Positions 7,226 through 55,835 of a stretch of 64,000 nt of DNA are shown piece after piece. The position numbers and the translations under genes are program-made. The notes under the pieces were generated by a model, which was not told the origin of the DNA, searched no databases, and saw only the letters and a program-made list of their open reading frames with translations. This DNA comes from Geosiphon pyriformis uo1 (lineage: Eukaryota > Fungi > Glomeromycota), in the NCBI GenBank assembly GCA_016748015.1, contig JAAOMT010000777.1, positions 190,347-254,346 on the forward strand, in the 5' to 3' direction. Within the stretch, counting starts at the first letter, position 1, and each line of letters starts with the position of its first letter.

Positions 7226-7861
7226 TTAATATTGAGCTCCATCAAAATTCTCATTTTGAATTATGTCAAATACTTCTTTTTCAAGTAGTGTCTGTTCCAC
7301 CCTACTCTTTATTTCTTTAATTTGTAAGTTGTTTATTTTTTTCCATTGATTAATGGTTATTGTTTCCATGTCAGAGTGTAATAATACTTCTGGATAGTTT
7401 TGAAATATAGTGTGTAGTTAATAAATGGTCTTAATATGTAGTGTCAAGTTTGTTTTTTTTCCAATAATGTCTTCAATGTTCCAGACTATTTCTTGATTAA
7501 AGATTCTTTTGGATTTGTCAAAGTATAACTTCTAAATATCTACTTTTTGTTCCAATTAATAGTAGTAGTATGATATTGGGAATTGGTCTATCTATTGGCT
7601 CCAATTTTTTTTTTCCAGTTCTTCTGTTGAAACTATGATGATTATTTTTCCAAAAGTGTTTTTTATTTTCTTTACTATTTTATCTGACCAGTTTATTACT
7701 GGTTTTTGTGGTCATTAGTATAGTGTATTTTTTCCTTTTTGTTTGGTGTTTCAATAACAGATTGTTTGGTTGTTGATGATAATTTCTATGTTTCCTTGCT
7801 GTTGACCTAAAGCCTAAAACAATTGTTGGGCTAAAGTGTGAATATGGTCTGGTATTTTCAT
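7226..7861 (-). pseudogene. A2 ORF3, unknown function
   Basis: ATG MKIPDHIH..., ends DGAQY-TAA at the PPT; homologous to A4 20075-20713. Confidence 0.75.
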
Positions 7862-10340: not shown

Positions 10341-11183
10341 TGTTACTCATAAAATAGAGGAAAGACATTAACATATAAATTAGCCAATCAGAAGTAGTCA
10401 CAGTAAATGTGGAATTCCAGAATTTTTCTCAAAAAAAATTACAGGATTCCAGAAATTTTAGAATTCTCATACAAGGAATCGCAGGATTCCAGAATTCCAG
10501 GATTCCTCTTAAAAGAAATTGCAGGATTCCAAGAATTTCAGGATTTCTGGTGTGAAGAATTGAGGAATTGAAGAATCTCAATTATGTATATATAGTGGTA
10601 GCATTAGAAGTAAAAAAAACAGACTTTTCCATTTAGATTTAATCTAAGCAACCTTCTATATCACAACCATCAATAAATAATTATTTAATACCTTAAATCT
10701 TCTTTTCACTATCAATATTTTATGTTGATAATAATTGCTAATTAGACCATACTGAAACAATAGCTTTTGATCACAGCTATTGATGGGATACTAACCATTA
10801 TTGTTTTGGCTTATTCATTATTATTTTTTTCTTTATATTTTTTCTCTTTTTGTTATTTTTTTTGTTTATTAACTTGATTAAAGAATTTATGTATGGAGGA
10901 ACTGACATTAGGATATAGCACTGGTAAAAGACCCAGGAATAAGGATAGACATTCGGGATTGAAAATATCTTACCAGAAGGAATACTGGCCATCATGCTGA
11001 GAAAAAAATTGACAAAACTGCAGTTTCGGAAAGCTATGGATAACACAACTATTAAATCTTTGTGCATTATACAAAAGACTTAACAAAGAAAAACCCTTCA
11101 AATATTAACACCAGAAATACCAATCAAGCACCAAGTTACAGGTTTGTTATTTGACTTGAGATTCTAAATAATCACTTGTAACA
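10341..11183 (+). repeat. A3 5' LTR
   Basis: TGTTACTCAT...TGTAACA; CCAAT box, CAGGATTCC/GAATTCC repeats, TATA-like TATATATAG, AATAAA. Confidence 0.93.
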
Positions 11184-11246
11184 TTTGGTACTCTCTGTGA
11201 GATATAATTTTACAGAAAACCAGCACCAACAAATCCCATCCAAACA

Positions 11247-11488
11247 GTGGCAGAATCAGAAGAAATAGGAACAAATCATTTGGAATTTGCAAAATCTTTA
11301 TTCCAATATTATCACATCTATCTCAAATTAACAAATAATAGTTGGCCAACAGAATCAGCTTTCAATTGCTACATCAACAAGAAAATCATATACCATTTAA
11401 GAAGTCAAGGAGATCCAGAATTTGTCTTCAACAACTTCTTCAGTAAACTACTTCAAAGCACTACTCTTCTGTAAAACTATTTATTCAC
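11247..11488 (+). pseudogene. gag: A3 gag N-terminus (interrupted by A4)
   Basis: GTG-AESEEIG...ESAFN; frame continues at 21599 (QNYLFT|PLITEIN). Confidence 0.88.
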
Positions 11489-12360
11489 TGTTACTCATAG
11501 AATATAGGAAATATATTAGTATATAAATTAGCCAATCAGAAGTAGCCATAGTAAATGTGGAATTCCAGGATTCCTCTTAAGAGGAATTGCAGAATTCCAA
11601 GAATTTCAGGATTTTTATACAAGAAATCACAGGATTCCAGAATTCCAGGATTCCTCTTAAAAGGAATTGCAGGATTTCAAGAATTCCAGGATTTCTGGTA
11701 TAAAAAATTGAGGAATTGAGAAATCTTAATTATGTATATATAGTGGTAGCATTAGAAGCAAAAAAAACAGACATCTCTATTTAGATTTGATCTAAGCAAC
11801 CTTTTAGTTCCCAAATATTAATAAATAAATATTTACCATCACAAATCTACTCTCCACTATCAACACTTTATGTTGATAGTTATTAATACTTAACCACACT
11901 AGAACAATAGCTCTTGATTATGGCTATTGACAGGATACTAACTTGTAAATTGCCTTGGCTTATTTTTTTACTTCTTTTATTTTCTTTTTTTATCTTTCTT
12001 TCTTTGATTTTTGTTGTATACTAATTGATTGAGGATTAAGTGCTGAATTATTGACATCACAAATAGCCTGGTAAAAGACCCAGAAATAAGGGTAATGAAT
12101 ATATATATATTAACAGATAGCTTACCAGAAGGGCACAACTGCCAGATTAAAATGGCCATTATGCTGAAGACAGAAATTGGGAAAAACAACTCACCAACCA
12201 ATCACATTATCATTGAATCTCTGTCTATTATACAAAAGACTTAACTAAAACCTTCAGATACAAACAACACCTTCAGATCATTATCATTGCAAATAGCTTC
12301 TAAGTACCAAGTTACAAGTTTGTTATTTAATTTGAGACCCCTAAATAATTACCTGTAACA
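11489..12360 (+). repeat. A4 5' LTR
   Basis: Matches 20728-21598. Confidence 0.94.
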
Positions 12361-12379
12361 TTTGGTGCTCTCTGTGAGG
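12361..12379 (+). promoter_or_regulatory. A4 primer binding site TTTGGTGCTCTCTGTGAGG
   Basis: TGG motif 2 nt after the LTR; complementary to a tRNA ending ...GAGCACCA (identity not determined). Confidence 0.85.
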
Positions 12380-12422
12380 TATAATCCTACAGAGAACTAG
12401 CACCAACTACACTCATCCAAAA

Positions 12423-15400
12423 GTGACAAAATCAGAATCAATAGGAGCAAACCATTTAGAATTTGCGAAATCCTTATTTTAATACTACTGTCAACATTTG
12501 GAATTAAACTACAACCACATATTAACAGAATCAGCCTTCAACTTCTATGTCAACAAGAGAATTGCTTATCTGTTAGGAACACCAGTAAATACCGAGTCAG
12601 CAAGAGAAACCTTTTACAACAAATTAATTCAAAACACTAGCCTACTAACAAACCACAATTTCACATCTATCATTACAAAAATCAATAAAAAAATTAAACA
12701 TCACACTCAACAAAAATACCCAATTACATATGCCAATAAAAGAAAAGGAAAACTACAAACCCCAGCAGTGACACCTCAAAAAATACAACCATCCATTTGG
12801 AAGAAAACCCGAGTTGAGTCATCAACAAACTCATTATACTAATACACACTAAGAAGCATCATTAACATTTTATCAACAGGCATGTCCACATCAAATGTGA
12901 CATCCACATTTGGATGACTCCTATTTCAAAACAAACAAAAGAAAGCAGAGTTACTAGAAATCTATGGTGATTATTTTGAAAGATTTAAATTACAATTGCC
13001 AATACTATCTAAATTCCAATCACTATCATCTCAACCAAATTTTGGGAATGCAAGTCCCTAGGAGATAACGGAATCAGAAGAGAAAGAAGAAGAAGAAGCC
13101 AAAGATCAAGAATTTACTTACCAGAACCTGATTCCAGAAAATCCTGACATTGAAACCCCAAACTTTTAGACACAGCAAAATACAAATTTAGAAAATCTGG
13201 AAATCAAAACTCCAAATATTTAACCACTGTCAAATCAGAATAATCAAAATTCCAATCTAATTAATCATCTGAACTTACCTTCTGTTATTATTATCAATCC
13301 ACCATAACAACCACCACTGCAATCTCAAATCCAGTTACCATCTTAACAACAAAACTTAGACCCAATGGCTTATGCCTCAATAGCAAAACTCAAAGAGTTT
13401 ACCAGCAAAGAAGACAATGCCCAAGCATGGCTCAACAATATAGAAAAAGCCATTGCAGCTAATAGATAGAATGACACCAGAGTCATGCAAGCCATTCCAT
13501 ATTTTCTTCAAAATACCACCAATTCATGCTACTAAAGCCTGGTCAACAAACTCCAAGATTTCAATGCATTTAAAATAGAGTTCTTAAGATACTTCAGCAA
13601 CAATAACAGCATTAACAGGTTAGCAAACACCTTCATTATCATTAAACAAGAAGAAACTGAAACAGTTATTACTTACTTAGAATGCTTTTATAAGAATCTG
13701 TATCAGATCCAAGTCATCGACACTAATTATTTTACAGTGGCCTAGATCTTAAATCAGTTTATTCACGAATTATGCAGTAGCATCCTGCAATGCATATGAC
13801 CAATGCATTCTGCTAATCTGCAAGCAGTCATCACAAACACCAGAGATTTTAAAGCCACTGAATTAGAAGCCAACCATGTCCAAGCAGTAAATCTAGTAAT
13901 GAATGGATCATCTAACTTGGATTCCAAATTGAAACAATTTAGCGAATCAATCAATTAGAAATTAGAGGAATACTTAGCTAACAACAATCAAGCAATTTAT
14001 TAAACTCCACAGCAATGCAATAATCAGGAAAACTCTAATTGTTTCCAAAATCAATTGCATCTATCATCATCAACCAATCAACAGTAGCAACAAGAAACGC
14101 ATGTTTGCCACTATTGTGATAAACAAAAACACCTACAAATTGACTGCTGCTATCACTTAAATAACCAATAATTAGGAAATCAATATTGAAACCCCAATTA
14201 CCAGTTTCAAATTCTGAATAATCCATCAAATTCAGAGTCATACCATCAAAATTACCTACCTATAACAGAATAGCCAATCTATCAACCACCAATTTATCAG
14301 CCCTCAATACCCATTGTTTATCAACTGCAGTCTCAACTTATCTATCAACCACAGTCTCAAGTAATCTATCAACCCCAACAAATTCAAACACTGCCACAAA
14401 ACCTACCTCAAACCAGAACCCAAAGACCAAGACTGACACAACAAAGCTGGAGATCATCAATGGTTGTTCATCAACTGATTCCCAGTTCCTCTAACCAGCT
14501 GTCAGAAACACATTAGTGGAGTCCAGGAACTGGGTATACTCAAAACCCAAGTTCCCAAAACTATTTAAGTCTCTTGGTTACTCCTGAAAATGCCACATTC
14601 AACAATCTGAAATCCAACCAGAAGCAGCTACTTACCAGCAATATCTCATCAGCAAATATCTCCAATAATGAATCTTTAGCCACTATCTTTCCTTTCAAAC
14701 TTGAGGAAACCACATCAGTTTTATTATTCAGTAAAGCTGCTCTTAACATCAAACCAATCACCACCATGTACACTGATGTGAAAGTTGATGGCCACGCCAT
14801 CAAACTGATCCTAAACAATAGATCAGCTGGCAGCATCATTACATGACAACTTATGGACCAATTAGATTACTGAGTTGATCACACTGCCAGTGCACACATA
14901 ATCACTGCTGATGGAGTGACCAAGACTCCGATTGGCAAGATTAATGACTTTCTTATAGAAGTCAATAGTATTATCATGCCAATCAAAATATTAGTAATGG
15001 AAGCAACCCAGTACCAAGCTCTTGTTGAAAATGACTGGCTGTCGAAAACCAATGTCATGCTTGACTGAAACACCCAAGAACTACAGTTAAGCTAGGATGA
15101 CCACCACACACAGGTGCCAGCCACTTGTGGTCACTTCAAGATCACTTACAATGACAAGCCACTCATTGAGTTCGAGAAAGAAGAGAAAAAATCTACCTAA
15201 AAAGCATACCAAGCTTTTTGGACCAATAAAGACCACAACAAACTACTACCAATACTCTCATGGGATGACAATGAAAAAGGAAAAGAAAAAGAAAAACTTA
15301 CCTGGAATGCTGACCAAGTCTCTTGGAATGATATAGAACACAATGAGCTATCACCAATACTCTTCTGGAATGCCAAAGAAAAAGGTAAAAAAGAGGACAC

Positions 15401-18400
15401 AACAGAAAAAGACACCACTACTAAAGAAATAACTAGTGGCTGAGAGAGATTCTACTCACATGAGCCACTAAAACAACTGCCACATATTCCACTTAAATGC
15501 CAAGATTGTGGAAAGAAACTTTCTTCCATGGGAGTTTGGGTCACACCAGATGAAGATTATTGGATGCAAACCCATTACTATTACAAGCCTTGTCACTGCA
15601 AACATTATGGCTATTCAAAAAGACAAGGAAAGTAGGACAACAAACCATGTTTTGCTTACAGCAAACAATTGCTTGATGAAGAAATATGGAATGACATTTC
15701 TAGTCGAAGAGAAACATATAACACTTCATGTCAATACACAATCCTCATCAGCAATTGTGTGAGTTATGATATGTCAATAACTGCCGTCTGGCACTGTGTG
15801 ATCTCTTGCTTGGACAGTTACCCACATGACAAGAACAAGATCTGGCATATGGCCAATGCCAAAATCAAAGGCACCATGTCCAGCAAAATTTTAGAAATCA
15901 AGAACAACCTACCAAAACCAGTCAATGTCATATTCATCCCAAACTCAGATGCTTTTCTTGACATAAAGACAGGTCCAGAAGAGTTTTATGAGCATTATCA
16001 AAACTTGGTACTAACAAAAGAAGAGTAAGAACAACATCTGGAAGAAATCAACACAAGACTATGTGACTTCCAATATTGTAATGAGTGTAATCTCATTTAC
16101 AATCTATTACTATGCATGATTTACACAATTCCAGAAGAGGATGAACCAATCAGCTACTGTGCATTGGAATCGGAATCAAATTTCAATCCTAATTCAAACT
16201 CCGACAATAATGACAATGAAAATAATAGTTCCAGCTCCATTCTATATGATAATAACAACAACAACAATTTAGACTCAGATTCAAACTCTGATTTAAACCA
16301 TGAACAATATATTACACTCCTTGATCTTATCAAAAAACAAGAACTTAAATGGTTCAGTGATAATAATAAAGGTATTATGTCAGAATGTGTGCATGATACT
16401 AATGCAGAGTTTGATTTGAGATATCTGGAAAAAGATTCCATCAAATTGGAATCACATTTATGCACATGTATTGATCTCAAAATAGCACTGGAGATTCCAA
16501 CAACAACAATGGTCCAACTAGCATCCAGAAGTAGTTTAGCAAAAAAGAAAATCAACATCAGAGAAGGAATAATTGATGCAGGATACGTAGGAAATATCAT
16601 TGCTATGCTACAAAATGATTCAGAAAAGTCATATATTATAGACTCAAATGAAAAGATAGCACAGGCAATATTTTTACCTCTGGTGAAAGTAGCTTAATTA
16701 GTGTCAATAGGAAACAGAGAAGAATTAAGGATAACAGTAAAAGGGATATAAGGATTCAAATCCATGGGTAGAATAGATGTACCAGTTAATATGGCAGAAG
16801 AAGAAATTATTGACAAGGGAGAAATTATTTCCACCTGTTAACCAATTTCTATTCCACCATATGACCAGTACATGGTAGTCATAGACAGAAAAGTAAGGGA
16901 TCAGGTTTAGATTTGTGAAGCAGAAGCAATCTTTTGTGAATCAGAAAAAATTGGATTAGTCAATCTACACATACCAGCCAAGAACCACAATCACATCAAA
17001 ATCCCCATTTACAACAACACAGGAGATATTATTGAGATACTGGAGGGAATTACTATTGGATATCTGACCACCAAAATTGAAGATCAATTACCAAACTCCA
17101 TTCCAGACTTTCCACAACTGTGCAGATATGTGGACATCACATTACAAACAATTTATGGACAAGAAAAATGTTATCTGCTCCAACCAGAACAATTAGAACA
17201 GATGAACTTGGGAAATCTAGATCTATTACAATGTATGCAGCTTAAGATGTTACTCAACAACTTCAATGACATCTTTGCAAGCAAAAATAAATTTGGTAGA
17301 ACTGACATAATCCAGCACCAGATCAAGACTGGAGATGCAATGCCAATCAAACAAAGAGCATACAGAGTACCACCAGCCAGCCATAAGATCATTTATCAAG
17401 AAATCAATCAAATGCTTGACAATAGATTAATTCAACCATCAATGAGCTCATGGTCATTACCAGTAATACTAGTCCATAAGAAAAATAGAAAAATATGCTT
17501 TTGTATGGATTACCAGAAATTGAATAGAGTGACCAAAAATGATAGCTACCCAACTTCAAAGATTCAAAAACTGTTCGATGTTTTTGGTAGAAAGAAATGG
17601 TTCTCAACTTTAGATTTAGACAGTGGTTACTGACAAGTAGCCATAAAACTAGGAGACAAAGAGAAAACAGTATTTACAATATGAAAAGGGAATTTTGAAT
17701 TTGAAGTTATGCCATTCAGCTTGATGAATGTTCCAGCCACATTTCAATGGCTGATGGAAATCATTTATACTAGACTATTGTGGAAATCTGTAATTGTTTA
17801 CTTGGACGATACAAATGTGTTCTTAAAAACATTTAATGATCATCTACATCATCTTCAATAAGTGTTTGAAAGGTTGAGAAGAACAAGATTGAAGTTGAAT
17901 ACAAACAAATGTTTCTTTGGCAAAACAGAACTCAAGTTTCTAGGACATGTTGTAAACAAAGATGATATCAAAATGGATTCAAACAAGATTGCAATAGTAA
18001 AAAATTTTCCAGCACCAACCAACTTGATGGAACTAAAAGCATTTTTGGAATTTGCAAACTATTATTGCCACTTTATCAAGAACTTTTCTAAACTGACACT
18101 GTCACTCTATTATCTACAAACCAAGAATGTGAAGTACAAATAAAAAGAAACTCAACAAGAGGCATTTGACACGTTAAAAAGAAAACTTATTCAAGCTCCA
18201 GTGTTAATGTATCCAGATCATAACAAATTATTTATTATTATCACTAATACATCAAGTCAAGCATTGGAAGCAGTACTATCACAAAGAGGACCAGATGAAA
18301 GAGAACATCCAATAACATATGTCAGTAGAAGCTTAAGTCCCACTGAAAAGAACTATGGAACTCCAGTACTAGAACACTTAGCTATTTATTAGACTGTTAC

Positions 18401-18602
18401 CAAATAGAAAGAATACTTGAGCCAAAAGTTTGATGTTTATACTGACCACAAAGGATTGACTTCAATTTAGAAGCAAAAATTTGGAGACAATTGTTATGCA
18501 AGATAGAAAATAGCACTATTACCATATATATTTACAGTACATTATAAAAAAGAAAAAAACAACAGAAATGCTGACGGATTGTTGCAAATGAGACAAATCT
18601 AA
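12423..18602 (+). pseudogene. pol: A4 ORF1: gag-PR-Cys-rich-dUTPase-RT-RNase H (~2060 codons, many stops)
   Basis: Capsid motif IAKLKEFTSKEDNAQAWL, protease near 14810, WFSTLDLDSGY, YLDDT, RNase H ending RQI-TAA. Confidence 0.92.
16377..16769 (+). pseudogene. dut: dUTPase domain in A4 pol
   Basis: Trimeric dUTPase motifs: AEFDL, ASRSSLA, GIIDAGYVGNI, EKIAQAIF, decayed RG..GFGS. Confidence 0.9.
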
Positions 18603-18638
18603 AAAAAAAACATTTCAACCAAAAAATATAACAAAAAG

Positions 18639-20015
18639 ATAAATATACAAAAATACCAACAACTCCAATATTATATAAATACCCAATTGTTCAAGGAGAA
18701 ATTATCTCAAAAAAAACAAAACAACATAAAACAACAATCAAAATATTTTATCAACCATCAAAATATACTTTACCAGAAAAACAGAAGAAATCCAGATCAA
18801 CTGACCAGAGTAATTACAAAACCAAAAAAAGAGACAATATTGTTTAACATGCACTCAGATCTAACAGCAGAACATTTTTATAAAGAAGCAACTATGGAAA
18901 GAACCAGAAAAAAATACTATTGGCCATCAATGTATCCAGACATTATCCAATATGTTCAAAATTGTAATGCTTATCAGAGAAAAGGAGAAACAAAACTCAG
19001 TGAACCATTAAGACTAATCAAAGTGAGACAACCATTCAATTGTATTAGAATCAACTTAGTCAGACCATTAACAATCACCAGCAGAGGCAACAGATATATT
19101 GCAGTAGTCATGGATTATCTCATAAAATGGCCAGAAACAAAAGCCATTCAAAGAGCAGATGCAGAATCCATTGTCAAATTTGTTCATCAAAATTTGATCT
19201 GTCGACATGTATGTCCAAAAAAACTGTTATCTGATCAAGGAACTTACTTTGTGAATAGAACATTGACAGAATTAAGTCAGAAATTTGAAATAAAAAGGCC
19301 ATTATTATCACTATACTATCCACAAACAAATAGGCTAGTTGAAAGATTTAACAAAACATTATGTAAAGCAATAGCCAAGATCAGTTAGGAAAACCAAGAC
19401 AAATGGGACTTGTTTATGCCATCAGTATTATTTGCTTATCAGACAATAAAGCAAGACACTACACAAACAACACCATTTAAATTAGTATATGGTAGAACAG
19501 CAACATTACCAGTTAAGATAGAAGTCAACATTTATCCAACAGAACCAATAACTAAAGACAATTTCCAGAAAACATTGTTGAGAAAAACATATGACTTAAT
19601 AGAGACACTAGAAAACAAATGGCAAAAAGCAGCTGATAACATTCAAAAGTCACAAAAGAAACAAAAAGAAAGACACGATAACCAATTACTGGATAAACCA
19701 GTTAAATTCAAGATTAGAAACAAAGTACTTTTATATCACACCAAAGTAGAAAAACAATGGAGTAGAAAATTTGACCCCAAATGGGACAAACCATTTTACA
19801 TAAAAAAAATTCTTGGAAATGGAGCTTATAAATTAAGATGGGACAACAAAATCTTAGCCAAAGCAGCACATAGTGATCAACTGAAACCATATCACCATAT
19901 AATATTACCATCTACCAGTAATATTCTACAATTAGAAATACAGAGAATACTAGTCCAACTAGATGAGATTCCATGAGATTTGGAACCAGTCATAATTATT
20001 GGACCAAACATGTAA
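18639..20015 (+). pseudogene. int: A4 integrase ORF
   Basis: Start decayed to ATA; NMHSD..H..CNAYQ, SDQGT, PQTNRLVE; ancestral stop at 20013-20015. Confidence 0.9.
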
Positions 20016-20074
20016 ATGAAACAATGAAAAGAGTATATAAAAACATAGTAAACATGACAGAAGACATCAGAAAA

Positions 20075-20713
20075 ATGGAAATTACCAACAACATTCACTC
20101 ACTAGTCCAACAATTCTTTCAATTGATCCAACAACAAGAAATAGAAATCACAATCAATCAACAAACCATCAAATACACAAACACCAGAAAAAGACCACAG
20201 GATAAAGTACAGAGGAAAACAGAAAACACTATTGACAAAATAGTGGCAAAAGTGAAACTGGTAATAGAAACACAATTCAAAGTCATCCAATATCAAGAGT
20301 TGACTATAAAAACCTGGAATTGGTGGATACAACAATTTTTAAGAAACTTTTGTTATTTTTACTTGGAACAACACGTGAATATTCAGAATCTATATACAAA
20401 TAAGACAAAACAATTATTTGACACAACAATACTATAACAACTAGAACAATTTGTAGAGAAAAACAATTTAACCACACAAACAAGAGCCATTTACTGGCTG
20501 CACACTGGATTTCAAGATTGACCAGAAATCTTGCTCAACACTGAAATAAATACTGTTACTGTCAACCAAATGGAAAAATTAATCAACACCCAATTTGAAA
20601 AATTACAGAACAAAATAACACCAATAATTTTCGAAAAAGAAGTTCAAAAACTACTCAAGAATGGAGAATTAGAGCTAGGAGATTTGGGAGATCTCGACAG
20701 AGCTCAATATTAA
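20075..20713 (+). pseudogene. A4 ORF3 (~212 aa), unknown function
   Basis: ORFs 19973-20437 and 20531-20713 share a frame; ATG at 20075 is conserved in A2 and A5; stop abuts the PPT. Confidence 0.8.
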
Positions 20714-20727
20714 AAAGGAGAGAATAA
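20711..20727 (+). promoter_or_regulatory. A4 polypurine tract
   Basis: TAAAAAGGAGAGAATAA immediately before the 3' LTR. Confidence 0.85.
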
Positions 20728-21598
20728 TGTTATTCATAGAATATAGGAAATATATTAGTATATAAATTAGCCATCAGAAGTAGCCATAGTAAATATGGAA
20801 TTCCAGGATTCCTCTTAAGAGAAATTGCAAAATTCCAGGAATTTCAGAATTCTTGTACAAAAAATCACAGGATTCCAGAATTCCAGAATTTCTCTCAAAA
20901 AAAATTACAGAATTCCAAAAATTCCAGGATTTCTGGTGTGAAAAATTGAGGAATTGAGGAATCTCAATTATGTATATATAGTGGTAGTATTAGAAGCAAA
21001 AAAGACAGACATCTCTATTTAGATTTGATTTAAGCAACCTTCTAGTTCCCAAATATTAATAAATAAATATTTACTATTACAAATATATTCTCCACTATTA
21101 ACACTTCATATTAATAATTATTGACACTTAACTACACTAGAACAATAGTTCTTGATCATGACTATTGATGGGATACTAATTTGCAAATTACCTTGGCTTA
21201 TTTTTTTACTTCTTTTATTTTCTTTTTTTATCTTTTTTTCTTTGATTTTTGTTGTATACTAATTGATTAAAAATTAAGTGCTGAATTATTGACATCACGG
21301 ATAGCCTGATAAAAGACCCAGAAATAAGAGTAATGAATATATATATATTAATGGATAGCTTATCAAAAGAGCATAACTGCCAGATTAAACCAGCTACTAT
21401 GCTAAAGATAGAAATTGGGAAAAACAATTTACCAACAAACCACATTATCATTGAATCTCTGTTCATTATACAAAAAACTCAACCAAAACCTTTAGATACA
21501 AACAATACCTTCAGATTATCATTATCACAAATAGCTTCTGAGCACCAAGTTACAGATTTGTTATTTAATTTGAGACCTCTAAATAATTATCTATAATA
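20728..21598 (+). repeat. A4 3' LTR
   Basis: Matches 11489-12360. Confidence 0.94.
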
Positions 21599-24500
21599 TC
21601 ACACCACTAATCACAGAAATAAATAGGGAAATTGAAAAATACACCAAACAAAAATTTCTTATTATGTTTGCTAATAAAAGAAAAGGAAGACTATAAACAT
21701 CAGCAGGAACTCCAAAGCAAATCCAACTACCCACTTGGAAGAAACAAAGATTTGATTCTCTGGCCAATCCATCATATTATCACACATTTGAAAGCACTAT
21801 CAATATAACATTAAAAGGCACATTTATCACAAACACAACCATATTATTGAACAAAATCTCATTCCAAAATAAACAAAAGAAAACAGAATTATTAGAAACA
21901 TATGGCAATTACTTTGAGAGATTTAAATCATAATTTCCAACACCATCAGGAATTTGATCACCACCACTACAACCAGATTTCAGAGCCATTAGTCCTTGGG
22001 AAATAACTGACTCTGAGGAAGAAGAAGATAGTAATCAAGAAAATAGTAACCAAAACACGATCTTAAAAAAACCAGAAATTGAGACTTTGGTTAATCAAAC
22101 CCCAAAAAACCAGAATGATTGAAACCCTGACATTAATAATCAACAATACTTACCTCTAGTAATTATGATCAATCCACCACCAGCTCTACCAATTGCCGAA
22201 CAGCAACAACAGCCACAATCACTATCCCAACAACAAATCCAGCAGCAACCACAACAACAACTAATGGCTTATGCTCCAATTGCCAAAATAGAGAAATTTA
22301 CCAGCGAAGAGGATAACACCCAAGTATGACTCAATAATGTGGAAAAAGCCATTACAGCCAATGAATGGAATGACAACAGAGCCCTTCAAGCAATTTCTTA
22401 TTTTCTACAGGATACTACTGACTCATGATATCAGAGTTTAACTGCTAAACTTCAAACATTCCAGGAATTTAAAATTGCATTTTTGGGATATTTCAGTAAT
22501 AATAACAGTATTAATCACCTAGCCAATGTCTTCACTACAATCAAACAGGGAGAAACTGAAGCAGTTACCACTTACTTGAGATGCTTTCACAGAGACTTAC
22601 ACCAAATTCAAACAATTCAAGCTGATTATTTTACAGTGCCACAGATCCTAAACCAGTTTATTTGTGGACTGTGCAGTAGTCTTCTTCAATGCATACATTC
22701 AATGCATTCACAAACTCTTCAGAATGCAGTTACCAACACAAAAGATTTTGAATTGGCAGAACTTGAAGCAAACCATGCTCAAGCCATTAACTTAGTCATG
22801 AATGAATCATCTAACTTGGATTCCAAATTGAAACAACTCAATAATTCAATTAATCAGAAATTGGAAGGATACTTAGCTGACAATTGCATAATTTATTAAC
22901 CATCACAATAACACAATAACTCAGAAAACATGAATCATTTCCAAAATCAGTCATGTCCATTATCATCATTTTCTTCTTCAAATCAGCTGTGGCAACAGGA
23001 AATGCATATCTGCCATAACTGTGGTAAACAAGGCCACATTAGAGCTAACTGCCAATTTTATAGTAATAATCTATAATCAGAAAATCAATATTAAAACCTC
23101 AATCACCAGTTTCAAGCTCCAAATTATCAATCCAACCCAGCACCATATTAATTGAGTTATCTACCTATAATGTAATAGCCAATCTATTAACCACCAATTT
23201 ATTAGCCCTCAATACCCATCATTTATCAACCACAGTCCCAATCCATTTATTAGTTGCAGCCTCAGGTAATTTATCAGCCCCAACAAATCCCAAACACTGC
23301 CATAGAACTTATCTCAAAATAGAACCCAAAGGCCAAGACTAACACAACAAAGCTGGAGATCATCAATAATAGTCCATTAATTAATTCTCAGTTCCTTCAC
23401 ACAACTATTAGGATCTTAACAATGGAATTTGGGCACCAGATACACCCAAAATCTGAATTTTCAGAACTATTTAAGTCTCTTGGTTACCCCAGAAGATGCC
23501 ACATCCAACAAATCAGAAGCCAACCAAAAACCACTTACTAACAATATCTCACTAGCAACCATTACAAAAGACAAATTACTTACTGTTATCTTCTTTTTTG
23601 AATTCAAAGAACCAATTGAAATGCTGCTATTCAGTAGAGCTGCTCTAAAATTAAAACCCATCACTGCGATGTATACTGATGCTAAAATTGATGGACAACA
23701 CATTAAACTGATCCTAGACAGTAGATCAGCCAGCAGTATTATTACATGACAATTTATGAACCAATTAAATTGCTGAGTTGATCACGCTGCCAGTACACAC
23801 ATAATTACTGCTAATAGAGCAACCAAAACTCCGATTGGTAAAATAGATAACTTTCCATTTAAAGTCAACAACATCATAATACCAATCAAGGTATTGGTGA
23901 TGGAAACAACTCAGTATTAGGCTCTTGTTGGAAATGACTGGCTGTCAAAAGCCAACACTATGCTCAACTGGAACACCCAAGAACTACAGCTCAGCCAGAA
24001 CAGTCACCACACATGCATGCCAGCCACTTGTGGTGACTTCAAGACCACTCCCAATGACAAACCACTCATTGAATTAGAAGAAAAAAAAAAACCTATCTGG
24101 GAAGTGTATCAAGTCTCCTAGACTGACACCAAACACAATAAGCTATCACCAGTACTTTCTTGAAATGATAAAGAGAAAAGTAAGGAAGAAAACACAACAG
24201 AAAAAGACACAACTAAAGAAATAACTAGTGGCTGAGAAAAATCCTACTCACATAAGCCACTAAAACAATTGCCACATATTCCACTCAAATGCCAAGATTG
24301 TGGCAAGAAACTTTCTTCCATGGGAGCTTGGATTACACTCAACAAAGATTACTGGATGTGAACCCACTATTATTGCAAGCTGTGCCACCAAAAATGATAT
24401 GGCTACCCAAAATGACAAGGCAAGTGAAACAACAAACCATGTCTCACTTGTAGGGAACAATTACTTGACAAAGGAATATGGAACAACATTCTTGGATGAG

Positions 24501-27382
24501 AAAGAATGTGCGACACTTTATGTTAATACATGATTCTTATCAGTAACTGGATAAGTCATAGAATGCCTATTACTGCTGCCTGGCACTGAGCAATCTTTTG
24601 TTTGGACAATTACCCACACAACAAAGATGAGATTTGGCGAATGGAAAATGCCAAAGTAGAAGGCATCATGCCCAGCAAAATATTGGAAATCAAAAACAAC
24701 CCTTTAGAACCAGTCAACATTATTCTAATTCCCAACCCAGATGCTTTCCTGAACCTGGAAGCAGGCCCAGAAGAATTTTATGAACACTATCAAAATTTGG
24801 CACCAATTAGAGAAGAGCAAGAACAGTGCTTAGAAGAAATAAACACCCAATTATGTGACCACTGTTTGATTCCATGTGACTTCCAGTATTGTAATAAATG
24901 TGATCTTATCTACAATCCACCACCACATATGATCTACATGATTCCAGAAAAAAACGAACCAATCAACAACTGCATATTGGAATTAAAATCAATTTTAATC
25001 CTAATTTAAACTCCAACAATAATAACAATGAAGACAATAATTTCAGCTCTACTCAATATAATAAGAAAAATAATGGTAATTCAGACTCCAATTTAAACCC
25101 CAAAACATACATTGCATTTTCTGACCTTTCCAAGAAACAAAAACTCAGATGGTATAGCAACAACAATAAAGGCATTATGCCAGAACATGTGCATAATACA
25201 GATGCAGAGTTTGATCTAAGATATCTAAAAAAAGATGCCATTAAATTGAAACTACATTCAAAATAGCACTGGAAATTCTAGCAACAACAATAATACAATT
25301 AACATCTAGAAGTAGCTTAGCCAAAAAGGGAATCAACATCAAAGGAGGAATAATTGATACAGAATACATAGAAAATATCATTGCTATGCTACAAAATAAC
25401 TCAGAAAAGACATATATTATAGATCCAAATGAAAAGACAGCACAAGCAATATTCTTATCTCTGGTGAAAGTAGCTCAATTAGTATTAGTGAAAAACAGGA
25501 AAGAATTAGGGATTACAGCAAGAGGGATATAGGGATTTGGGTCAACAAGTAGAATAGATGTACTAGTTAATATAGCAGAGAAAAAAATTGTTGACAAGGG
25601 AGAAATTATCTCCACCTGTCAACCAATCTTTATTCCACCATATGATAGGTACATGGTCAAAATAGAAAGAAAAGTGAAGAATCAGATTCAGATTTTTAAA
25701 GCAGAAACAAAACTTGTAAATCAGAAAAAATCAGATTAATCAATTTATATATACCAACCAAGAACCACAATTACATCAAAATTCCCATTTACAACAACAT
25801 GGAAGAACTCATTGAGATACCAGAAGAAACCACCATTGGATATTTAACCACCAGAATTAAGGATCAACTATTAGACACCATTACAGACTTTCTACAACTG
25901 TGTGGATATGTAGATATCACATCTTAAACCATATATGAACAAGAAAAATGTTATCTGCTTCAACCAGAACAATTGGAAAAGATGAACTTGGAAAATCTAG
26001 ATCTATTACAATATATACAACTCAAAATATTACTTAACAACTTCAATGACATCTTTGCAAGTGAAAATAAATTTGGCAAAACTGACATCATACAACACCA
26101 AATCAAGACTGGAGATACAATGCCAATTAAACAGAAAGCATACAGAATACCACCAGCTAGTCATGAGATCATTCATCAAGAAATCAATTGGATGCTTGAC
26201 AACAGGCTAATTCAGTCATCAATAAGTCCATGATTATCATCAGTGGTACTAGTCTGGAAGAAGAATGAAAAAATTTGCTTTTGTGTAGATTACCAAAAAC
26301 TAAATGGAGTAACAAAAAGAGATAACTATCCAACTCCAAAGATTCAAGAACTTTTCAATGCTTTTGAAGGAAAGAAATGGTTCTCAACTCTAAATTTAGA
26401 CAGCAGTTACTGACAAGTAGCTATGAAGCCAAAAGACAAAAAGAAAACAGCTTTTACAACTCAGGAAGAAAACTTTGAGTTTAAAGTAATGCTATTTGGC
26501 TTGATGAATGCCCCAGCCACTTTCCAGCAACTTATGAAAATTGTTTATACTGGACTACTATGGAAATCAATAATTATATACTTGGATAACACCAATGTGT
26601 TCTCAAAAACATTTGATGATCATCTGCATTATCTCTAACAAGTGTTTGAAAGACTAAGAAGAACCAGATTAAAGCTAAATGCAATCAAATGTTTCTTTGA
26701 AAAAACCGAACTTAAGTTTTTAGAATATGTGGTGAGCAAAGACAGAATCAAAACGGATCCAGACAAGATTGAGATTGTCAAGAACTTTCTAGTTTCAAAT
26801 AATATCACAGAATTGAGAGCATTTTTGGGATTTGCTGGATACTACTGCTGCTTTATCAGGAACTTTTCCAAAATAGCTTAACCATTACACCAACTCCAAA
26901 CAAAAAACACCAAATATGAATGGACAGAAACTCAACAAAAAGCTTTTGATACTTTAAGAAGAAAGCTTATTCGAGCCATAGTACTGATATATCCAGATTA
27001 TAGCAAGCCATTTATAATAACAACCAATGCATTTGGTTAAGTGTTGGAAACAGTACTATTACAGAAAAGACTGAATGGAAAAGAGCATCCAATAGCTTAC
27101 ACCAGTAGAAGCTTAAGTCCAGCTGAAAAAAACTATGGAACTCCAGTACTAGAACACTTAGCTATCTATTAGGCTGTCATCAAATGGAAAGAATACTTGA
27201 ATCAGAAGTTTGATGTATACACTGATCACAAAGAATTGACTTCAATTCAGAAACAAAAATTTGGAGATGATTGCCATGTCAGATGGAAAATAGAACTGTC
27301 ACCATTTAATTATACAGTACATTATAAAAAAAAAAATGAAAATGAAAATGCCAATGGATTGTTTTGAATAAGACAAATCTAA
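21599..27382 (+). pseudogene. pol: A3 gag-PR-Cys-rich-dUTPase-RT-RNase H
   Basis: Zn-knuckle CHNCGKQGHIRANC, LILDSRS, dUTPase at ~25177-25550, RT, RNase H ending RQI-TAA. Confidence 0.92.
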
Positions 27383-27413
27383 AAACATTTCAATCCAAAA
27401 ATATAATAAAAAG

Positions 27414-28790
27414 ATGAACATACAAAAATACCAACAACTTCAATATTATATAAATACTCAATTGTTCAAGGAGAAATTATTTCAAAAGAAACAAAACAGC
27501 ATAAAACAACAATCAAAATATTTTATCAATCACCAAAATATACTTTACTGGAAAAACAGAAAGAATTCAGATCAACCAACCAGAATAATTACAGAACCAG
27601 AAAAAGAGACAATATTATTCAACATGTATTCAGATTCAACAGCAAGACATTTTCATAAAAAAACAACCATAAAAAGAACCAGAAAAAAATATTATTGGCC
27701 ATCTATGTATCCAGATATTATCCAATATGTTCAAAATTGTGATGCTTGTCAGAGAAGAGGAGAAACAAAACCCAGTGAACCATTGAGACCAATTAAAGTG
27801 GGACAACCATTTGATTGAATTGGAATTGATTTAATTGGACCATTAACAATAACTAACAGAGGCAACAGATACATTGCAGTAGTCATGGATTATTTTACAA
27901 AATGGCCAGAAGCAAAAGCCATTTAAAGAGCAGATGCAGAATCCATTGCCAAATTTATTTATCAAAATTTAATTTGCCAACATGGATGTCCAAAAAAATT
28001 ATTATCTGATCAAAGAACTCACTTTGTGAATAGAACATTAGCAGAATTAAGCCAGAGATTTGGAATCAAGAGACCATTATCATCATCATACCATCCACAA
28101 ACAAATGGGTTAGTTAAAAAGTTTAACAGAATATTGTGTAAAACAATTACCAAGATCAGTCAAAAAAACCAGGACGAATGGAATTTGTTTATACCATTAG
28201 TATTATTTGCTTATCAGACAATGAAGCAAGACACTATACAAGCAACACTATTTGAATTAGTATACAGTAGAACAGCAATATTACCAGTCGAGATAGAAGT
28301 TAACACTTATTCAGCAAAACCAATAACTGAAGACAATTTTCAGGAAACGTTGCTAAGAAGAGTATATGACTTAATGGAAACACTAGAAAACAAATGGCAA
28401 AAAACAGCTAATAACATTCAAATATTACAAGAAAAACAAAAAGAAAGACATGATAACCAATTACCAGAGAAACCAGTTGAATTCAAGATTGGAGACAAAG
28501 TACTTCTACATTGTACTAAAGCAGAAAAACAATGGAATAGAAAATTTGATCCCAAATGGAACAGACCATTTTACATAAAAAAAATTCTTGAAAATAGGTC
28601 TTATAAATTAAAATGGGACAACAAAATCTTAGCCAAAGCAGCACATGGTAATCAACTGAAACCATATTACCATATAGTATTACCATCCACCAGTAATATT
28701 TTACAATTAGGAGTACAGAGAATACTAGTACAACCAGATAAGATTCCACAAAATCTGGAACCAATCATAATCATTAGACCAAACATGTAA
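27414..28790 (+). pseudogene. int: A3 integrase ORF (458 codons, own ATG)
   Basis: ATG MNIQKYQQL; ORFs 27414 and 28026 share a frame; zinc-finger region, DDE core, GPF-like C-terminus; no chromodomain. Confidence 0.92.
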
Positions 28791-28850
28791 AATTGAACAA
28801 TAAAAAGAGTATATAAAGACATGATAGACGTGACAGAAGATTTCAAAAAA

Positions 28851-29472
28851 ATAAAAATCATTTACAACATTCACTCACTAACACAACAACTCTTTCAACT
28901 GATTCAACAACAGAATATAAAAATTACTATCAATTAACAAACCATTTGATACCGAGATACTAAAAAGATACCTAAACACAAAAGTCAAAGAAAAACAGAA
29001 AATATTATTGACAAAATGGTTCTGAAAATAAAATTAACAATAGAGGAACCAACAAGTATTACCACATATCAGGAGTTGACCAAAAAAACTTGGAAATAGT
29101 GAATACATGAATTTCCAAGAAACTTTTGTTATTTTCACTTGGGATGACACTTAAACATTCAGAACTTATACATGGATAAAACAAAACAATTATTTAATAC
29201 AATCATACTGCAACAATTAAAACAATTTGACTACATAAGCAAAAGCCATTTATCAGCTACATACTGGATTTCAAGATAGACCAGAAATTTTACTTAATTC
29301 TGAAATGGATTTCATTACAGTTAACCAAATAAGAAAAATAACCAATGCCTAATTTGAAAAATTACAAAACAAGGTAACACAAGTAATTCTCGAAAAAAAA
29401 GTTCAAGAAATACTTAAAGATAGAGAATTAGAGTTAGAAGATTTAGGAAATCTTAACAGAGCTCAATATTAA
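28851..29472 (+). pseudogene. A3 ORF3, unknown function
   Basis: Homologous to A4 ORF3; start decayed to ATA; ends RAQY-TAA. Confidence 0.75.
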
Positions 29473-29485
29473 AAGGAGGGAATAA

Positions 29486-30306
29486 TATTACTCATAGAAT
29501 AAAAGAAAAACATTAGCATATAAATTAGCCAATCAGAAATAGCTGCAGTAAATGTGGAATTCCAGGATTCCTCTTAAGAAGAATTGCAGGATTCCAGAAA
29601 TTTCAGGATTCTCGTACAAGAAATCACAGGATTCCAAAATTTCAGGATTTCTCTCAAAAGGAATTCCAGAATTCCTGGTGTGAAGAATCGAGGAATTAAA
29701 GAATCTCAATTATGTATATATAACAGTAGTGTTAAAAGTAGAAAAGACAGACCTCTCTGTTTAGATTTAATCTAAGCAACCTTCTATATCACAACTATTA
29801 ATAAATAATTATTCAATACCTTAAATCTTCTCTTCACTATCAATATTTTATGTTGATAATAATTGCTAATTAGATCACACTGGAACAATAGCTCTTGATC
29901 ACGGCTATTGACAGGATACTAACTATTATTGTTTTGGCTTATTTGTTATTTTTCTTTTCTTTATATTTTTTCTCTTTTTGTTATTTTTTTTGTTTATTAA
30001 CTTGATTAAAGGATTCATGCATGGAGGAATTGACATCAGGATATAGCACTGATAAAAGACCCAGGAATAAGAGTAGACACTCGGGATTGAAGATATCTTA
30101 CCAGAAGGAATACTGGCCATCATGCTGAGAAAGAAATTGACAAAACTGCAGTTTTGGGAAGCTATGAATAACACAACTATTAAATTTCTGTTCATTATAC
30201 AAAGAACTCAACAAAACCCTTTAGATATTAACACCAGAAATACCAATCAAGCACCAAGTTATGGGTTTGTTATTTGACTTGAGATCCCAAATAATCACTT
30301 GTGACA
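29486..30306 (+). repeat. A3 3' LTR
   Basis: Matches 10341-11183. Confidence 0.93.
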
Positions 30307-30862
30307 CTGTCTAAGTCTAGCATTAAGAACTATTTCTTTCCTCCAAAAACATCAAACAGTTCTTGAATCTTTAAAGTTAGGTAATTATCTCCTTTTGTTA
30401 CTCCATTCAGTTTCTAGTAGTCTATACAAAAGCAGATTTTTTCATTCTTTTTATGGACTAGTACCACTGGTAATAACCATGGGCTCATTGATAGCTGAAT
30501 TAACCTGTTGTCAAGCATCTGATTGATTTCTTAATGAATGATCTTATGACTGGCAGGTGGTACTTTGTATGCTTTTTGTTTGATTAGCATTGTATCTTCA
30601 GTCTTAATCTGGTGTTGAATTATGTTAGTTCTGCCAAATTTATTTTCACTGGCAAAGATGTTATTGAAATTGTTGAGTAATATCTTGAGTTACATTCATT
30701 GAAATGGGTCTAAATTTTCCAAGTTTATCTGTTCTAGTTGTTTTGTTTGGAGCAAATAACATTTTTCTTGTCTGTATATTGTTTGAGATATGATATCTAC
30801 ATATCCACACAGTTGTAGAAAGTCTGGAATAGGATTTGGTGATTGTTTCTCAATTTTGGTGA
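30307..30862 (-). pseudogene. pol: A2 RT N-terminal part (between the A3 and C insertions)
   Basis: LDLDS|SYWQ motif rejoins across TSD CTGT with 10340. Confidence 0.9.
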
Positions 30863-31733
30863 TGTTACAGAATGGTTCTCTTGTTATATTTAATTGCTGA
30901 TATCCCATTTTAATTGCAATCAGTCTTTTGTGAGTTCCTCAATTCTATTTGTGTGATAATGTCACTGTTATACTGAAGGCTTTCTTTTTAATGTTGCGAT
31001 GTAAGTTATTCTTCAATTTCTGATTGTTGTGTGTGTTTATGTACTCCTTCTCAGAGGCTGAACTGAAATCTACTCACTGTCTGGGGTTTTCTCTGAGGTT
31101 ATCCTTGCAATTGCCTGATGTGTTTTTCTAATTTAGAAACACAGAATGTTAATGGTCTTTAGCACTTTTTTTAATTCTTACAATAAAGCTTTTATCAATT
31201 AGTAACAATGTGAATAATTTTGATCAAGAATTATTCTTCCAAGAGATTCAGTTGATAAATGATAGTTTCATTCAATAAATAATACAAGTAAATTTCTTAA
31301 TACTTTGGGTTGTGATAATTCAGTTTTAAATATTCTTTTTCATTTCTTTTTGATTTAAAAGTTTCTTGGGATATTTAATTTGAAAGTATGATTTAAAGTG
31401 GAGTTTGTTGAATAAAATTGGATCTATTGCTTGATAAGTTATGATTTTTATTACCCAATTTTTCCTAATATTAAAACTACTGTATATATACATGTTTGTA
31501 GTTCTATGAGAAAACACATTGTAATACTTTCTTTTTGATATTTCAATCTGGTGTTTGCTGCTATCACCAGTTGGTGTTGGCTGCTATTGTGAACTGATGC
31601 TTGCCACTATTGCAAGATGGTGTTTGCTACTATGTTAATTATTACTTTTCTAAGATTATTACTGCGCTATATTATGATTGAATAGTTTGTATTATTTTTA
31701 TGATTCTTTTTGCTAAATTCTTAAACTGTAACA
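30863..31733 (-). repeat. C 3' LTR
   Basis: Matches 39541-40411; 23-bp tandem repeat at ~31550-31633. Confidence 0.95.
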
Positions 31734-31746
31734 TTATCCCCTCCTT

Positions 31747-32414
31747 TTAAGATTGAGCTCCATCGAAATCAAAGTTAATTTCTTCATTAAATTCTAAGTT
31801 ACTATAGTGGTTCAATACTGTGTTATTAATTTGTTGTTGTAATTCTTGAAATTGTGAATTGGTAAGTCGTCCAATACTGTTGGTTGTTATTATGTTCATG
31901 GTTGAGTCCAACAATAATTTGTGACAGTTTTCAAATGCTTTGAAAATTCTGTAAACTGTTTTTGAATGGAATGTAGTGTTGGTTTTTCCAATGAAAGATT
32001 CTAATAGTTGGATAGTTGTTTTGTCAAACACTCTAGTTGAGTCTTTTGAGTATAATGTTTGTATGTTCAAGTGCTTTCCTAGTTGATAATAACAGTAATT
32101 AATTGGAAATTTCGTTTTCAAGTTGCTAAATGTGTCTGGTGTTAATTCACTTATTTCTATTTCTTCCATTATTAATGTATTGCCCAATGCTATCTCTAAT
32201 TTTTCAGTAACTTTGCTAATAAATTTGTTGTTATATTTGGCAATATTATATGGTTCAAAATTATGTTCTTTTCTTGTTTTTGGATTTTCTATTGTTCTTT
32301 TTATGTATGTTATCTTGAGCTATTAACTGTGATTTCCAGATCGGATTTTAATTGTTGTAAGCTTTCAACTAATTGTTGAGTTATATTGTTGATGTTTTCT
32401 GGAATAAGTATCAT
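31747..32414 (-). pseudogene. C ORF3, unknown function (one frameshift)
   Basis: MILIPENINNITQQL..., FPINYCYYQLGKHLNIQTLY, ends DFDGAQS-TAA at the PPT. Confidence 0.78.
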
Positions 32415-32498
32415 TGTTTTAATTTTGACTGCTATTTTGGAATCTTTTGTATGCGTTTTTATGGTTGTTAAATCATTTTTGCTGTGATCTAAGATTAA

Positions 32499-33729
32499 TT
32501 ATCTTTTTGAATAATGTTCAATTAAAACTATTGGTTCTAAATCTCATGGAATTTGTTCTGGTAGAATTAAAGATAATTGTGTTCCAATTCTGGGTGTTTT
32601 TGTTGTTATTACTGGTTTACTGTAATAGAATTTCAGCCGGTTACCATGTGCTGCTTTTCTTAATATTTTATCATCTAGTCTTAGCTTGTATGCTCCATTT
32701 CCAAGTATTTCGTGAATATAAAATGGTTCATCCCACTTGTGATCAAATTTTCCACTCCACTGTTTTTCTATTTTTGTACGATGCAACAATACTTTATCTC
32801 CAATTTTGTAGCTAATTATATTATCTGGTAACTGGTTATCATGTCTCACTTTTTGTTGTTCTTATAATTGTTCAATATTTTGTGCTGCTTTTCTTCTTTT
32901 GTTTTCTAAAGTTCCCATTAATTCATATATTCTTCTAAGTAGTGTTTTCTGGAATGTTGTTTCTGTGATAGTGTCACTTAGATAAGTTGGGATAGTAAGT
33001 TCAACTGGTAATGTGGCTTTTTTTCCATAAACCAGTTCAAACGGTGTGAATTGTGTAGTATCTTGTTTTACTGTTCTATATGCTAGTAGTACTGCTGGTA
33101 TAAACAAATTCCATTCTTTTTCATGTTCGTTACTAATTTTCGCCAGTGATTTACATAATGTGCAATTAAATCTTTCAACTAATCCATTTGTTTGAGGGTG
33201 ATATGGTGATGACAGTGGTTGCTTGATTCCAAATTTTTGGCTAAGTTCTTTTAAGGTGCTGTTTACGAAGTGTGTGCCTTAATCTGATAGCAATTCTTGT
33301 GGACATCCATGTCAGCAAATTAAGTCTTCATGTACGAATTGAGCTACAGAAATAGCATCAGCTGTTTTAATAGCTCTAGCNNNNNNNNNNNNNNNNNNNN
33401 NNNNNNNNNNNNNNNNNNNNNNNNNNNNNNNNNNNNATTTTTGGCCAATAGTAATGGCTAGTTGCACGTTGGATGGTTGCTGTTTTTCCAAAGTGGCCTG
33501 AATGAATATCTGAGTGCATGTTAAATAAAATAGTTTCTTTTTCATCTGTGGTTATAACTCTTAATGGATTATCTGGATTTTGTCAATTCCAGTAATAAAG
33601 TATGTGATTTTGGATGAAATAATGTTTTGCTAATTTTTGGAGCTTAATTAGCTCTTTTACTGGCATTTCTTCATCTATTTGTAGTGTTTCCAAGTATTGG
33701 CTGAGGTTTTTGTAAAGATGGTTGTTCAT
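32499..33729 (-). pseudogene. int: C integrase ORF (own ATG; spans an assembly gap)
   Basis: ATG MNNHLYKNLSQYL, NMHSDIHSGH, PQTNGLVERFN, KWDEPF. Confidence 0.9.
33381..33436. other. Assembly gap (56 N)
   Basis: Run of N; part of the integrase core is missing. Confidence 1.
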
Positions 33730-33758
33730 TGTTGTTGTGGTGAGTGGGTTGGTGATTT

Positions 33759-51776: not shown

Positions 51777-51829
51777 ATAAAATGTACTATTCCCAAAACA
51801 GAGGTATTTTCTGGATCAAAACATTTAAA

Positions 51830-52420
51830 ATGTCTTCTATACTCTTTATAAGTATTGAATCAAAAACTATTCAAATGCTACTCTGACTATTGGAAAACAA
51901 ACCACTATAACTAATAATAATGGAACATATACTGTTATTAGACCAAAAAAAACTATTACCAAAAGAGAAAAAATTGGTAGCAAAATAGATAAATGTCTGT
52001 TGAAAAGTATAACAGCAGCTATACTCCTACCTTCTAGTACAATTGAAAAAACATTCCAAGAAATTTTACCTATAGACAAAAACTTGTCATATGGAAGGCA
52101 ATTAGAACTCTATAGTCACCTTGGAAAAATCATAAAAGATATGAAACTTATGAAAAAAACAACTTCAAAGATACAGCAGAAATTTTGGGTATTATACAGT
52201 TAGATATTTCAAGAGTTTTAACTATTGCTAAAAGAGCCAAAACTCTAATACAAAAATTTGGTTTCTTGAATACAAAACTCATTTCACCTCAAGTATTATA
52301 TATCCTATTCACAAAAAATTTCAACAAACTAGTTAGCTTTGAGTTAAATAAAACTCTTTAAATAGATTACACCATAAATAACTTGATTTTGCTGAAGCTC
52401 AATCTCTTTGGAGAGGATGA
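51830..52420 (+). pseudogene. B2 ORF3, unknown function (frameshifted)
   Basis: Includes ORF 52000-52203; YSHLG motif and C-terminal FAEAQS resemble ORF3 of families A and C; start approximate. Confidence 0.6.
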
Positions 52421-53111
52421 TGTTATGGTTGAAACTTATACTTCTTATTAATTATCACATGTATTAACCATTAATATTATATAAATTAGCCACTCTATTT
52501 TTAGAAAGTGATTATTGACCTAATCAATAACCTAACTGTTAACCTGATTATTAACTTAGTCATTGATCTAATCATTGACCATTTTTGATAACTATATAAG
52601 CAATAAATCTTTTAACTGTAGAAAAACATGTAGAAATTAAAAAAATAAATAAATAAAATAACAACTTTCATCTCAATCCTTCTCTTATTGCTAAATTTTC
52701 TTTCTCTATCTTCAAATATCTGAACATCTTGGAATAAAAAATTACTTGTTGGCATTTACCTACTCTTTTTCTGAAATGTGTAATTGCAGTATTTAAAGAT
52801 TATTAAATAAAATGTGACTGAAGAATACATCTGATATCTAATATTGAATTCTAAAAGTGGTGATGTGAGGCATAGAATTATACCAGATGTAATTATTTGT
52901 TAACAGTACAAAATATCCCTCTACTTTCAGATTTCCTGGTTATCTTTTAAAAAGTATAACAACTGAGATATTTTATAAGACTGATTTCACACATTGAATT
53001 CATACTCATTTAATTTGTTCTTTGAAGTTGAATTCTCTTTGATCTCTTTCATTACCCTACAATCTTGTTCTCTCTTGCTATCTATTAGCTTTGTTATTCC
53101 AATTCATAACA
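52421..53111 (+). repeat. B2 3' LTR (preceded by PPT GGAGAGGATGA at 52410-52420)
   Basis: TGTTATGG...CATAACA; ~12-bp ATTGACCTAATC tandem repeats in U3. Confidence 0.92.
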
Positions 53112-55376: not shown

Positions 55377-55835
55377 TTAATATTGAGCTCTGTCAAAATC
55401 TTTGTTTTGAATTAATTCTAATACTTCTTTTTTAAGTATTGTTTGTTCGACTCTGTTTCTCATGTCTTGGTTGAATATTTTCTTGGATTTGTCAATATAC
55501 AACTTCTGAATATTCAACTTCCGACCTAACTGGTAGTAACAGTATGATATTGGAAGTTGTTCTGTCTATTGTTTTCAATTCTCTTTTGTAAGTTCTTCTG
55601 TTTGTACTATAATAGGTATTTTCCCAAACGTGTTCTTTACTTTTTCTATTATGTTATCTGACCGGTTTTTATCATTCTTTGGTACCCACTGATATGGTGT
55701 GTTCTTTGTCTTTTTTTTAGTGTTTTAATAGCAAATTGTTTAGTTGTTAATGATAATTTCCATGTTTAACTGTTGTTGACTTAAGGCCTGGAACAGTTGT
55801 TAAGCTATAGTGTGAATATGATCTGGTATTTCCAT
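55377..55835 (-). pseudogene. A5 ORF3 (internal deletion)
   Basis: ATG MEIPDHIHTIA..., ends DRAQY-TAA; ~175 nt shorter than A2 ORF3. Confidence 0.72.

Follow-up and report, generated by a model that had tools for sequence, protein, structure and literature searches.

We describe a third open reading frame (ORF), ORF3, in a 64,000-nucleotide stretch of the genome of the fungus Geosiphon pyriformis (contig JAAOMT010000777.1; the whole stretch is called the window below). The window consists of decayed Ty3/gypsy long terminal repeat (LTR) retrotransposons nested in one another, and in five of them, A2, A3, A4, A5 and C, a sense ORF lies between the integrase and the polypurine tract (PPT), as the preliminary description of this DNA had claimed. 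ORF3 is a real, separate and conserved accessory gene under purifying selection, and its product is an unnamed soluble protein family. The type of ORF3 is paired with the type of word repeated in the U3 region of the adjoining LTR. Tentatively, ORF3 may be a helix-turn-helix (HTH) DNA-binding regulator of the U3 words of its own subfamily, keeping the LTR active.

ORF3 is a conserved gene under purifying selection

The A2 copy (20075..20713, plus strand) was counted from a conserved Met; there is an extra in-frame ATG at 20054, and internal stops lie at 20435 and 20519. The annotated model P0093 covers this locus and is spliced so as to skip the stops. The A3 copy (28830..29472, plus strand) belongs to the same subfamily, shares the U3 word of A2 and is broken by a frameshift and stops. 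A second subfamily is formed by A4 (7226..7861, minus strand), which contains stops, and A5 (55377..55835, minus strand), which has an internal deletion. The third is represented by C (31747..32414, minus strand), with one frameshift near 32316 and 189 open codons. The minus-strand copy at 7861-7226 is probably the A4 of the preliminary description, because its reverse transcriptase (RT) runs on from 30306 to 10341 across nested insertions. No copies beyond these five were found in the window by tblastn and profile search. The three subfamilies are 30-41% identical, and the shared core motifs reported earlier do align among the copies. The view that ORF3 is not env also held: the best 19-residue hydropathy was 0.27-1.05 in 5/5 proteins, which on hydropathy only leaves no hydrophobic segment, and no env family was matched in Pfam.

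Every copy in the window is broken, and the reading frame is nevertheless far more open than chance allows. Over its 219 codons the A2 copy is interrupted by 2 in-frame stops, where shuffled sequences average 16.7 and 0/500 shuffles fell so low; the 189 codons of C contain none, where shuffles average 15.5. Many of the stops align with CAA, CAG or TGG of sister copies. The ratio of nonsynonymous to synonymous divergence (dN/dS), the check proposed beforehand, was well below 1, at 0.19-0.40 in 8/10 pairs with the other two saturated; the same test gave 0.10-0.42 for integrase and 0.12-0.21 for RT. The sequence pairs are non-independent, a protein-guided alignment is biased toward dN below dS, and the opening segment of C, 33 codons that entered the test out of frame, contributes nothing reliable. 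Transversions are not a product of C>T decay, and they were commoner at 4-fold than at 0-fold sites in 10/10 pairs. Stop-free, ungapped copies exist elsewhere in the Geosiphon genome (P0063, 219 aa; P0010, 209 aa; P0065, 211 aa), so that no consensus had to be reconstructed, and with them a young C family of 8 clustered models.

In two protein searches with overlapping result sets, 51/51 and 96/96 matches were hypothetical proteins of G. pyriformis. When 1.84 billion representative sequences were searched with a profile, 101 matched, and the 10 distant ones looked up were 8 Geosiphon proteins, forming two further subfamilies, and 2 metagenome records. No named homologue outside Geosiphon was among the looked-up part of the 101, most of which were left unchecked, and a metagenome scan with P0063 gave 0 relatives among 100 pattern matches. 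A further contig, L001, has the same layout as the window elements: the RNase H stop is followed after 24 nt by an integrase with an ATG start and, 318 nt beyond it, by a 230-aa ORF3, which here extends through the PPT into the LTR. Identity to the ORF3-bearing window elements is 46-56% for the RT-RNase H of L001 and about 47-57% for its integrase. The two extra subfamilies, the metagenome relatives and L001 together bear out the idea of a lineage-wide accessory gene. Many of the "hypothetical proteins" annotated in Geosiphon (within P0007-P0326) are copies of ORF3 or models whose splicing bypasses stops; some of these models are fused to gag or other retroelement parts, and the gene set is thereby inflated.

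The type of ORF3 follows the U3 word

The integrase DNA of A2, A3, A4 and A5 is 84-86% alike, and ORF3 divides the same elements into A2 with A3 versus A4 with A5. Between A2 and A4, dS is 1.7 in ORF3 and 0.37 in integrase, and identity per 100 nt falls from about 85% in integrase to 51-71% over most of ORF3 and U3 before returning to about 80% past a TATA-like box. The U3 of A2 contains an array of 7 near-palindromic GGAATTCCAG-type words (20797..20935, plus strand), which are candidate ORF3 binding sites, and A3 also has 7. A4 and A5 have CACATTGCT-type inverted repeats instead (7 and 4 copies), and C has 3 TAGCAAACACCA-type words. Cross counts of the words were zero in 8/8 U3 stretches. L001 has a different repeated word, present 6 times where shuffles gave at most 3. 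Such a pairing would be the appearance expected of a regulator and its operator. Two points qualify this interpretation: neighbouring sequences recombine as one block, and no more than three types were observed.

In a comparison of A2 with A3, gag (13461-13898) was far more diverged than integrase (19020-19520), with synonymous sites saturated as opposed to a dS of 0.29. The integrase therefore seems to have been exchanged between subfamilies.

Predicted fold

The first ORF3 model was of low confidence (predicted local distance difference test score, pLDDT, 44), and a viral fold search with it was uninformative. A relative is predicted to fold confidently: a short helix and a beta-hairpin form the N-terminal part, about residues 84-210 make up a helical core, and the C-terminal helix is long. 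Foldseek with this good model gave no match at E <= 0.001, and the N-terminal helix-hairpin part was barely covered. At scores below significance, 93-95 residues of the helical core can be aligned with the ParB-family DNA-binding domains of Spo0J (1vz0) and KorB (1r71), and the Y-W-x-I-G helix of DUF1016_N (PF17761) falls into register with the core. By sequence, DUF1016_N reached 14.6 bits in 1/21 members against a Pfam cut-off of 32.8 bits; compared with the helical core it gave P 0.016-0.061, and 2/3 masters scored above all 100 shuffles. A small ParB-HTH sequence profile (6 sequences) gave no signal, and HTH_ParB was absent among the Pfam matches listed. Nothing exceeded the cut-off for ORF3 in Pfam, PHROGs and PDB-sequence searches, and the best match in a phage tblastn had only E 8.

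Possible functions of ORF3

Several jobs had been suggested for ORF3 in advance. On balance the evidence favours a regulator that binds DNA in the LTR of its own element, possibly with the suggested anti-silencing role included, while the suggestion of an integrase partner found no support. We infer that ORF3 binds DNA, as a dimer on palindromic words, with an activating or methylation-shielding effect. The protein would be made from its own cistron, perhaps by restart past the stop of the integrase, from an internal promoter or through splicing, its dimer would bind the U3 array of its own subfamily, and the bound dimer would then activate the LTR or shield it from methylation, in the manner of foamy-virus Tas. 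An extended version, which is rather doubtful, is that this fungal LTR retrotransposon lineage took up an HTH protein of bacterial type (ParB/DUF1016_N-like), which came to regulate its LTR in a sequence-specific way. Together with the U3 operator array, ORF3 would then make up a cassette that can be swapped on a common integrase backbone, and each subfamily would switch itself on or escape methylation privately.

ORF3 might instead act on the RNA of the element, either in ribosome restart at the integrase, as TAV does, or in export of unspliced genomic RNA, as CERV does. Such a role is unlikely, yet it has several things to recommend it: the protein is basic, both precedents are published (PMC5902531 and PMC10309623), and the integrase is a separate cistron 24-36 nt past a stop, with a spacer in C that has no AG for a splice acceptor, so that some restart mechanism is needed. 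However, no TAV- or CERV-like family was matched in Pfam, and an RNA-level role leaves unexplained why the ORF3 type follows the U3 word and not the shared integrase junction. A general counter-defence protein, directed against small-RNA silencing or cytosine methylation and deamination and having no cognate DNA site, is less probable. Pressure for counter-defence does exist, since CpG is strongly depleted across the window (observed/expected 0.15) and LTR-pair differences are almost exclusively transitions (88/91 in A2, 38/38 in another pair). ORF3 also diverges faster than integrase, but most of this excess lies at synonymous sites and goes back to an older history of the block (dS 1.7 versus 0.37); in addition, dN/dS is far below 1 and no known suppressor family was matched.

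That ORF3 is a partner of integrase or a targeting factor is hardly likely. It stands directly behind the integrase, no chromodomain was found there, so that a targeting part is not otherwise seen, and a DNA-binding fold would fit this role as well. Against this, near-identical integrases (84-86% DNA identity, 74-80% core amino-acid identity) accompany ORF3 versions only 36-39% alike, and the occurrence of one type of integrase beside such different ORF3s speaks against a tight partnership. It is very improbable that ORF3 is an envelope remnant or a functionless frame kept by chance and the PPT signal. It does occupy the env position, 5/5 window copies are broken, and its final codons are fixed by a DNA signal. 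Nevertheless there is no membrane or signal segment, purifying selection acts along the whole length, and intact copies, distant relatives of the same layout and a confidently folding relative exist; selection, hydropathy and fold thus largely refute this explanation.

The integrase is a separate cistron

The tri-cistronic layout with a split integrase, also noted earlier, was recovered throughout. In A2 the stop codon at 18600..18602 (plus strand), present in 5/5 related elements, closes the gag-PR-dUTPase-RT-RNase H frame (PR, protease), and the stand-alone integrase ORF follows at 18639..20015 (plus strand), with Zn, core and SH3-like parts and two internal stops. RNase H ends at a stop in 5/5 window elements and in L001, and the integrase begins 24-36 nt downstream; in none of them does it share one open frame with RT-RNase H as in canonical Pol, which makes this a variant layout. 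In A3, A5, C and L001 the integrase starts with an ATG of its own, whereas in A2 and A4 the codon at that position is ATA. The 24-36 nt spacers (18600-18641; 33700-33765; 772-801 in L001) are A/C-rich and almost without G. The relative frame of RNase H and integrase varies among copies.

The terminal motif is a DNA word, and family B has its own ORF

DF(D/A)(G/E)AQ(S/Y), earlier taken as a terminal protein motif of the whole family, had to be reinterpreted, as it is the DNA word AGCTCAAT that is conserved and its frame varies by subfamily. In A2 the conserved word GAGCTCAAT, the ORF3 stop and the PPT occupy 20700..20727 (plus strand). AGCTCAAT is unchanged upstream of the PPT in 7/7 element ends, distant families included (at 3100-3120 in L001). 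It translates to ...GAQ(Y/S/F) in four subfamilies, while the E subfamily, the two metagenome proteins and those B proteins that are intact read it in another frame, as EL(S/N)LEE or ELNLFGEDD. Its conservation suggests that it is likely a signal for plus-strand priming.

B2, a member of the distant B family, had also been listed as a carrier of ORF3, but the DFAEAQS reading there is out of frame with the B ORF, and B2 proved to have an ORF family of its own. The B family is distant, with an RT identity of 37-40%, and no dUTPase match was found. The post-integrase ORF of B2 (about 51780..52440, plus strand) is broken, and the corresponding 218-aa gene is intact in many Geosiphon copies (132 matches; 20 intact models retrieved); the protein gave nothing over the Pfam cut-off. 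Against the ORF3 profile the B ORF was at shuffle level, with a top score of 2.3 bits where shuffled sequences reached 9.5; hhalign gave E values of 0.29-0.84, and five kinds of comparison gave no significant homology. The predicted elements of the B and ORF3 proteins appear collinear by eye. The B ORF may be a remote relative of ORF3.

Element setting

A2 extends over 11489-21599, with gag, protease, dUTPase, RT and RNase H in a single frame followed by integrase and ORF3. The gag-PR-RT-RNase H-integrase order, with dUTPase between protease and RT, and a Ty3-type capsid place the elements in Ty3/gypsy (Metaviridae). The LTRs are paired, with a TGG primer site behind the 5' LTR and a PPT ahead of the 3' LTR, and are 89% identical in A2 and 96% in C. 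The 3' LTR of A2 (20728..21599, plus strand) differs from the 5' LTR (11489-12361) by 88 transitions and 3 transversions. L001 is likewise depleted in CpG (0.21).

Nesting is deep at 6325-45881, where A4 is interrupted by C (30862-40411) and A3 (10341-30306), and A2 sits inside A3. Between protease and dUTPase (15300-16350) lie about 350 polyprotein codons that encode an acidic stretch as well as several clusters of Cys and His, and no clear Pfam match. The integrase of C contains 56 N in a row (33381-33436). Contigs of run X1 (kind guessed, share 0.17) omit parts of C at 35219-39433 (minus strand); 5/15 listed joints over C have GT..AG ends on the plus strand and would represent spliced RNA antisense to gag-pol. 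One 745-nt X1 contig at 31492-32246 covers most of the ORF3 of C, and that of A2 is without a contig except for its last codons; neither was counted as evidence.

Comparison with known systems and significance

Additional ORFs in sense orientation that follow pol and precede the 3' LTR (aORF-3S) are a known class (Vicient and Casacuberta, PMC7264820). A sense ORF occupies this position in L001 and in 5/5 related elements whose 3' end lies in the window, and ORF3 resembles the class in position, strand and retention in most copies. The sense examples in the available part of that review are env-like, some with transmembrane segments or spliced mRNA, whereas ORF3 is soluble, fungal and behind a stand-alone integrase. 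Tas/Bel1 of foamy viruses, a nuclear transcriptional transactivator, is like ORF3 a small accessory gene adjoining the 3' LTR (PMC8003144, in the portion available). Its function is, by analogy, the job proposed for ORF3; no sequence relation was found, and the Geosiphon elements have no env. Unlike ParB-family proteins, ORF3 lacks both the ParB N-terminal domain and a nuclease domain. CERV of C. elegans Cer1 (PMC10309623) and TAV/P6 of cauliflower mosaic virus (PMC5902531) are, as far as these accounts were available, non-env accessory proteins controlling expression of reverse-transcribing elements, but they work via RNA export or translation restart, and no similarity to ORF3 was detected. 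Ty3/gypsy elements bearing dUTPase (PMC2864245, PMC5408684) share the gag-PR-dUTPase-RT-RNase H-integrase order and LTRs of A2, a likeness taken from their partial descriptions only, and the title of the rotifer paper among them mentions additional ORFs; in Geosiphon the integrase is split from Pol and the ORF3 family is unnamed. A literature search, with most subscription papers, supplements, Repbase, Dfam and GyDB outside its scope, found no published description of ORF3.

Extra ORFs past pol are known, yet almost none has an assigned job. For the ORF3 family there are natural copies that are intact, a model of good confidence and candidate sites for binding, which makes a direct test cheap. 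If ORF3 is an LTR-binding regulator, this would be a fungal retrotransposon with the logic of a complex retrovirus, having separate cistrons and a private transactivator. LTR elements make up 41.2% of the G. pyriformis genome (PMC11952901, the available part of which gives the LTR load only and nothing on ORF3), and such a regulator would bear on how they spread to this extent despite heavy cytosine decay. On the extended version, private switching by the ORF3/U3 cassette may have driven the LTR expansion in the Geosiphon genome (41%).
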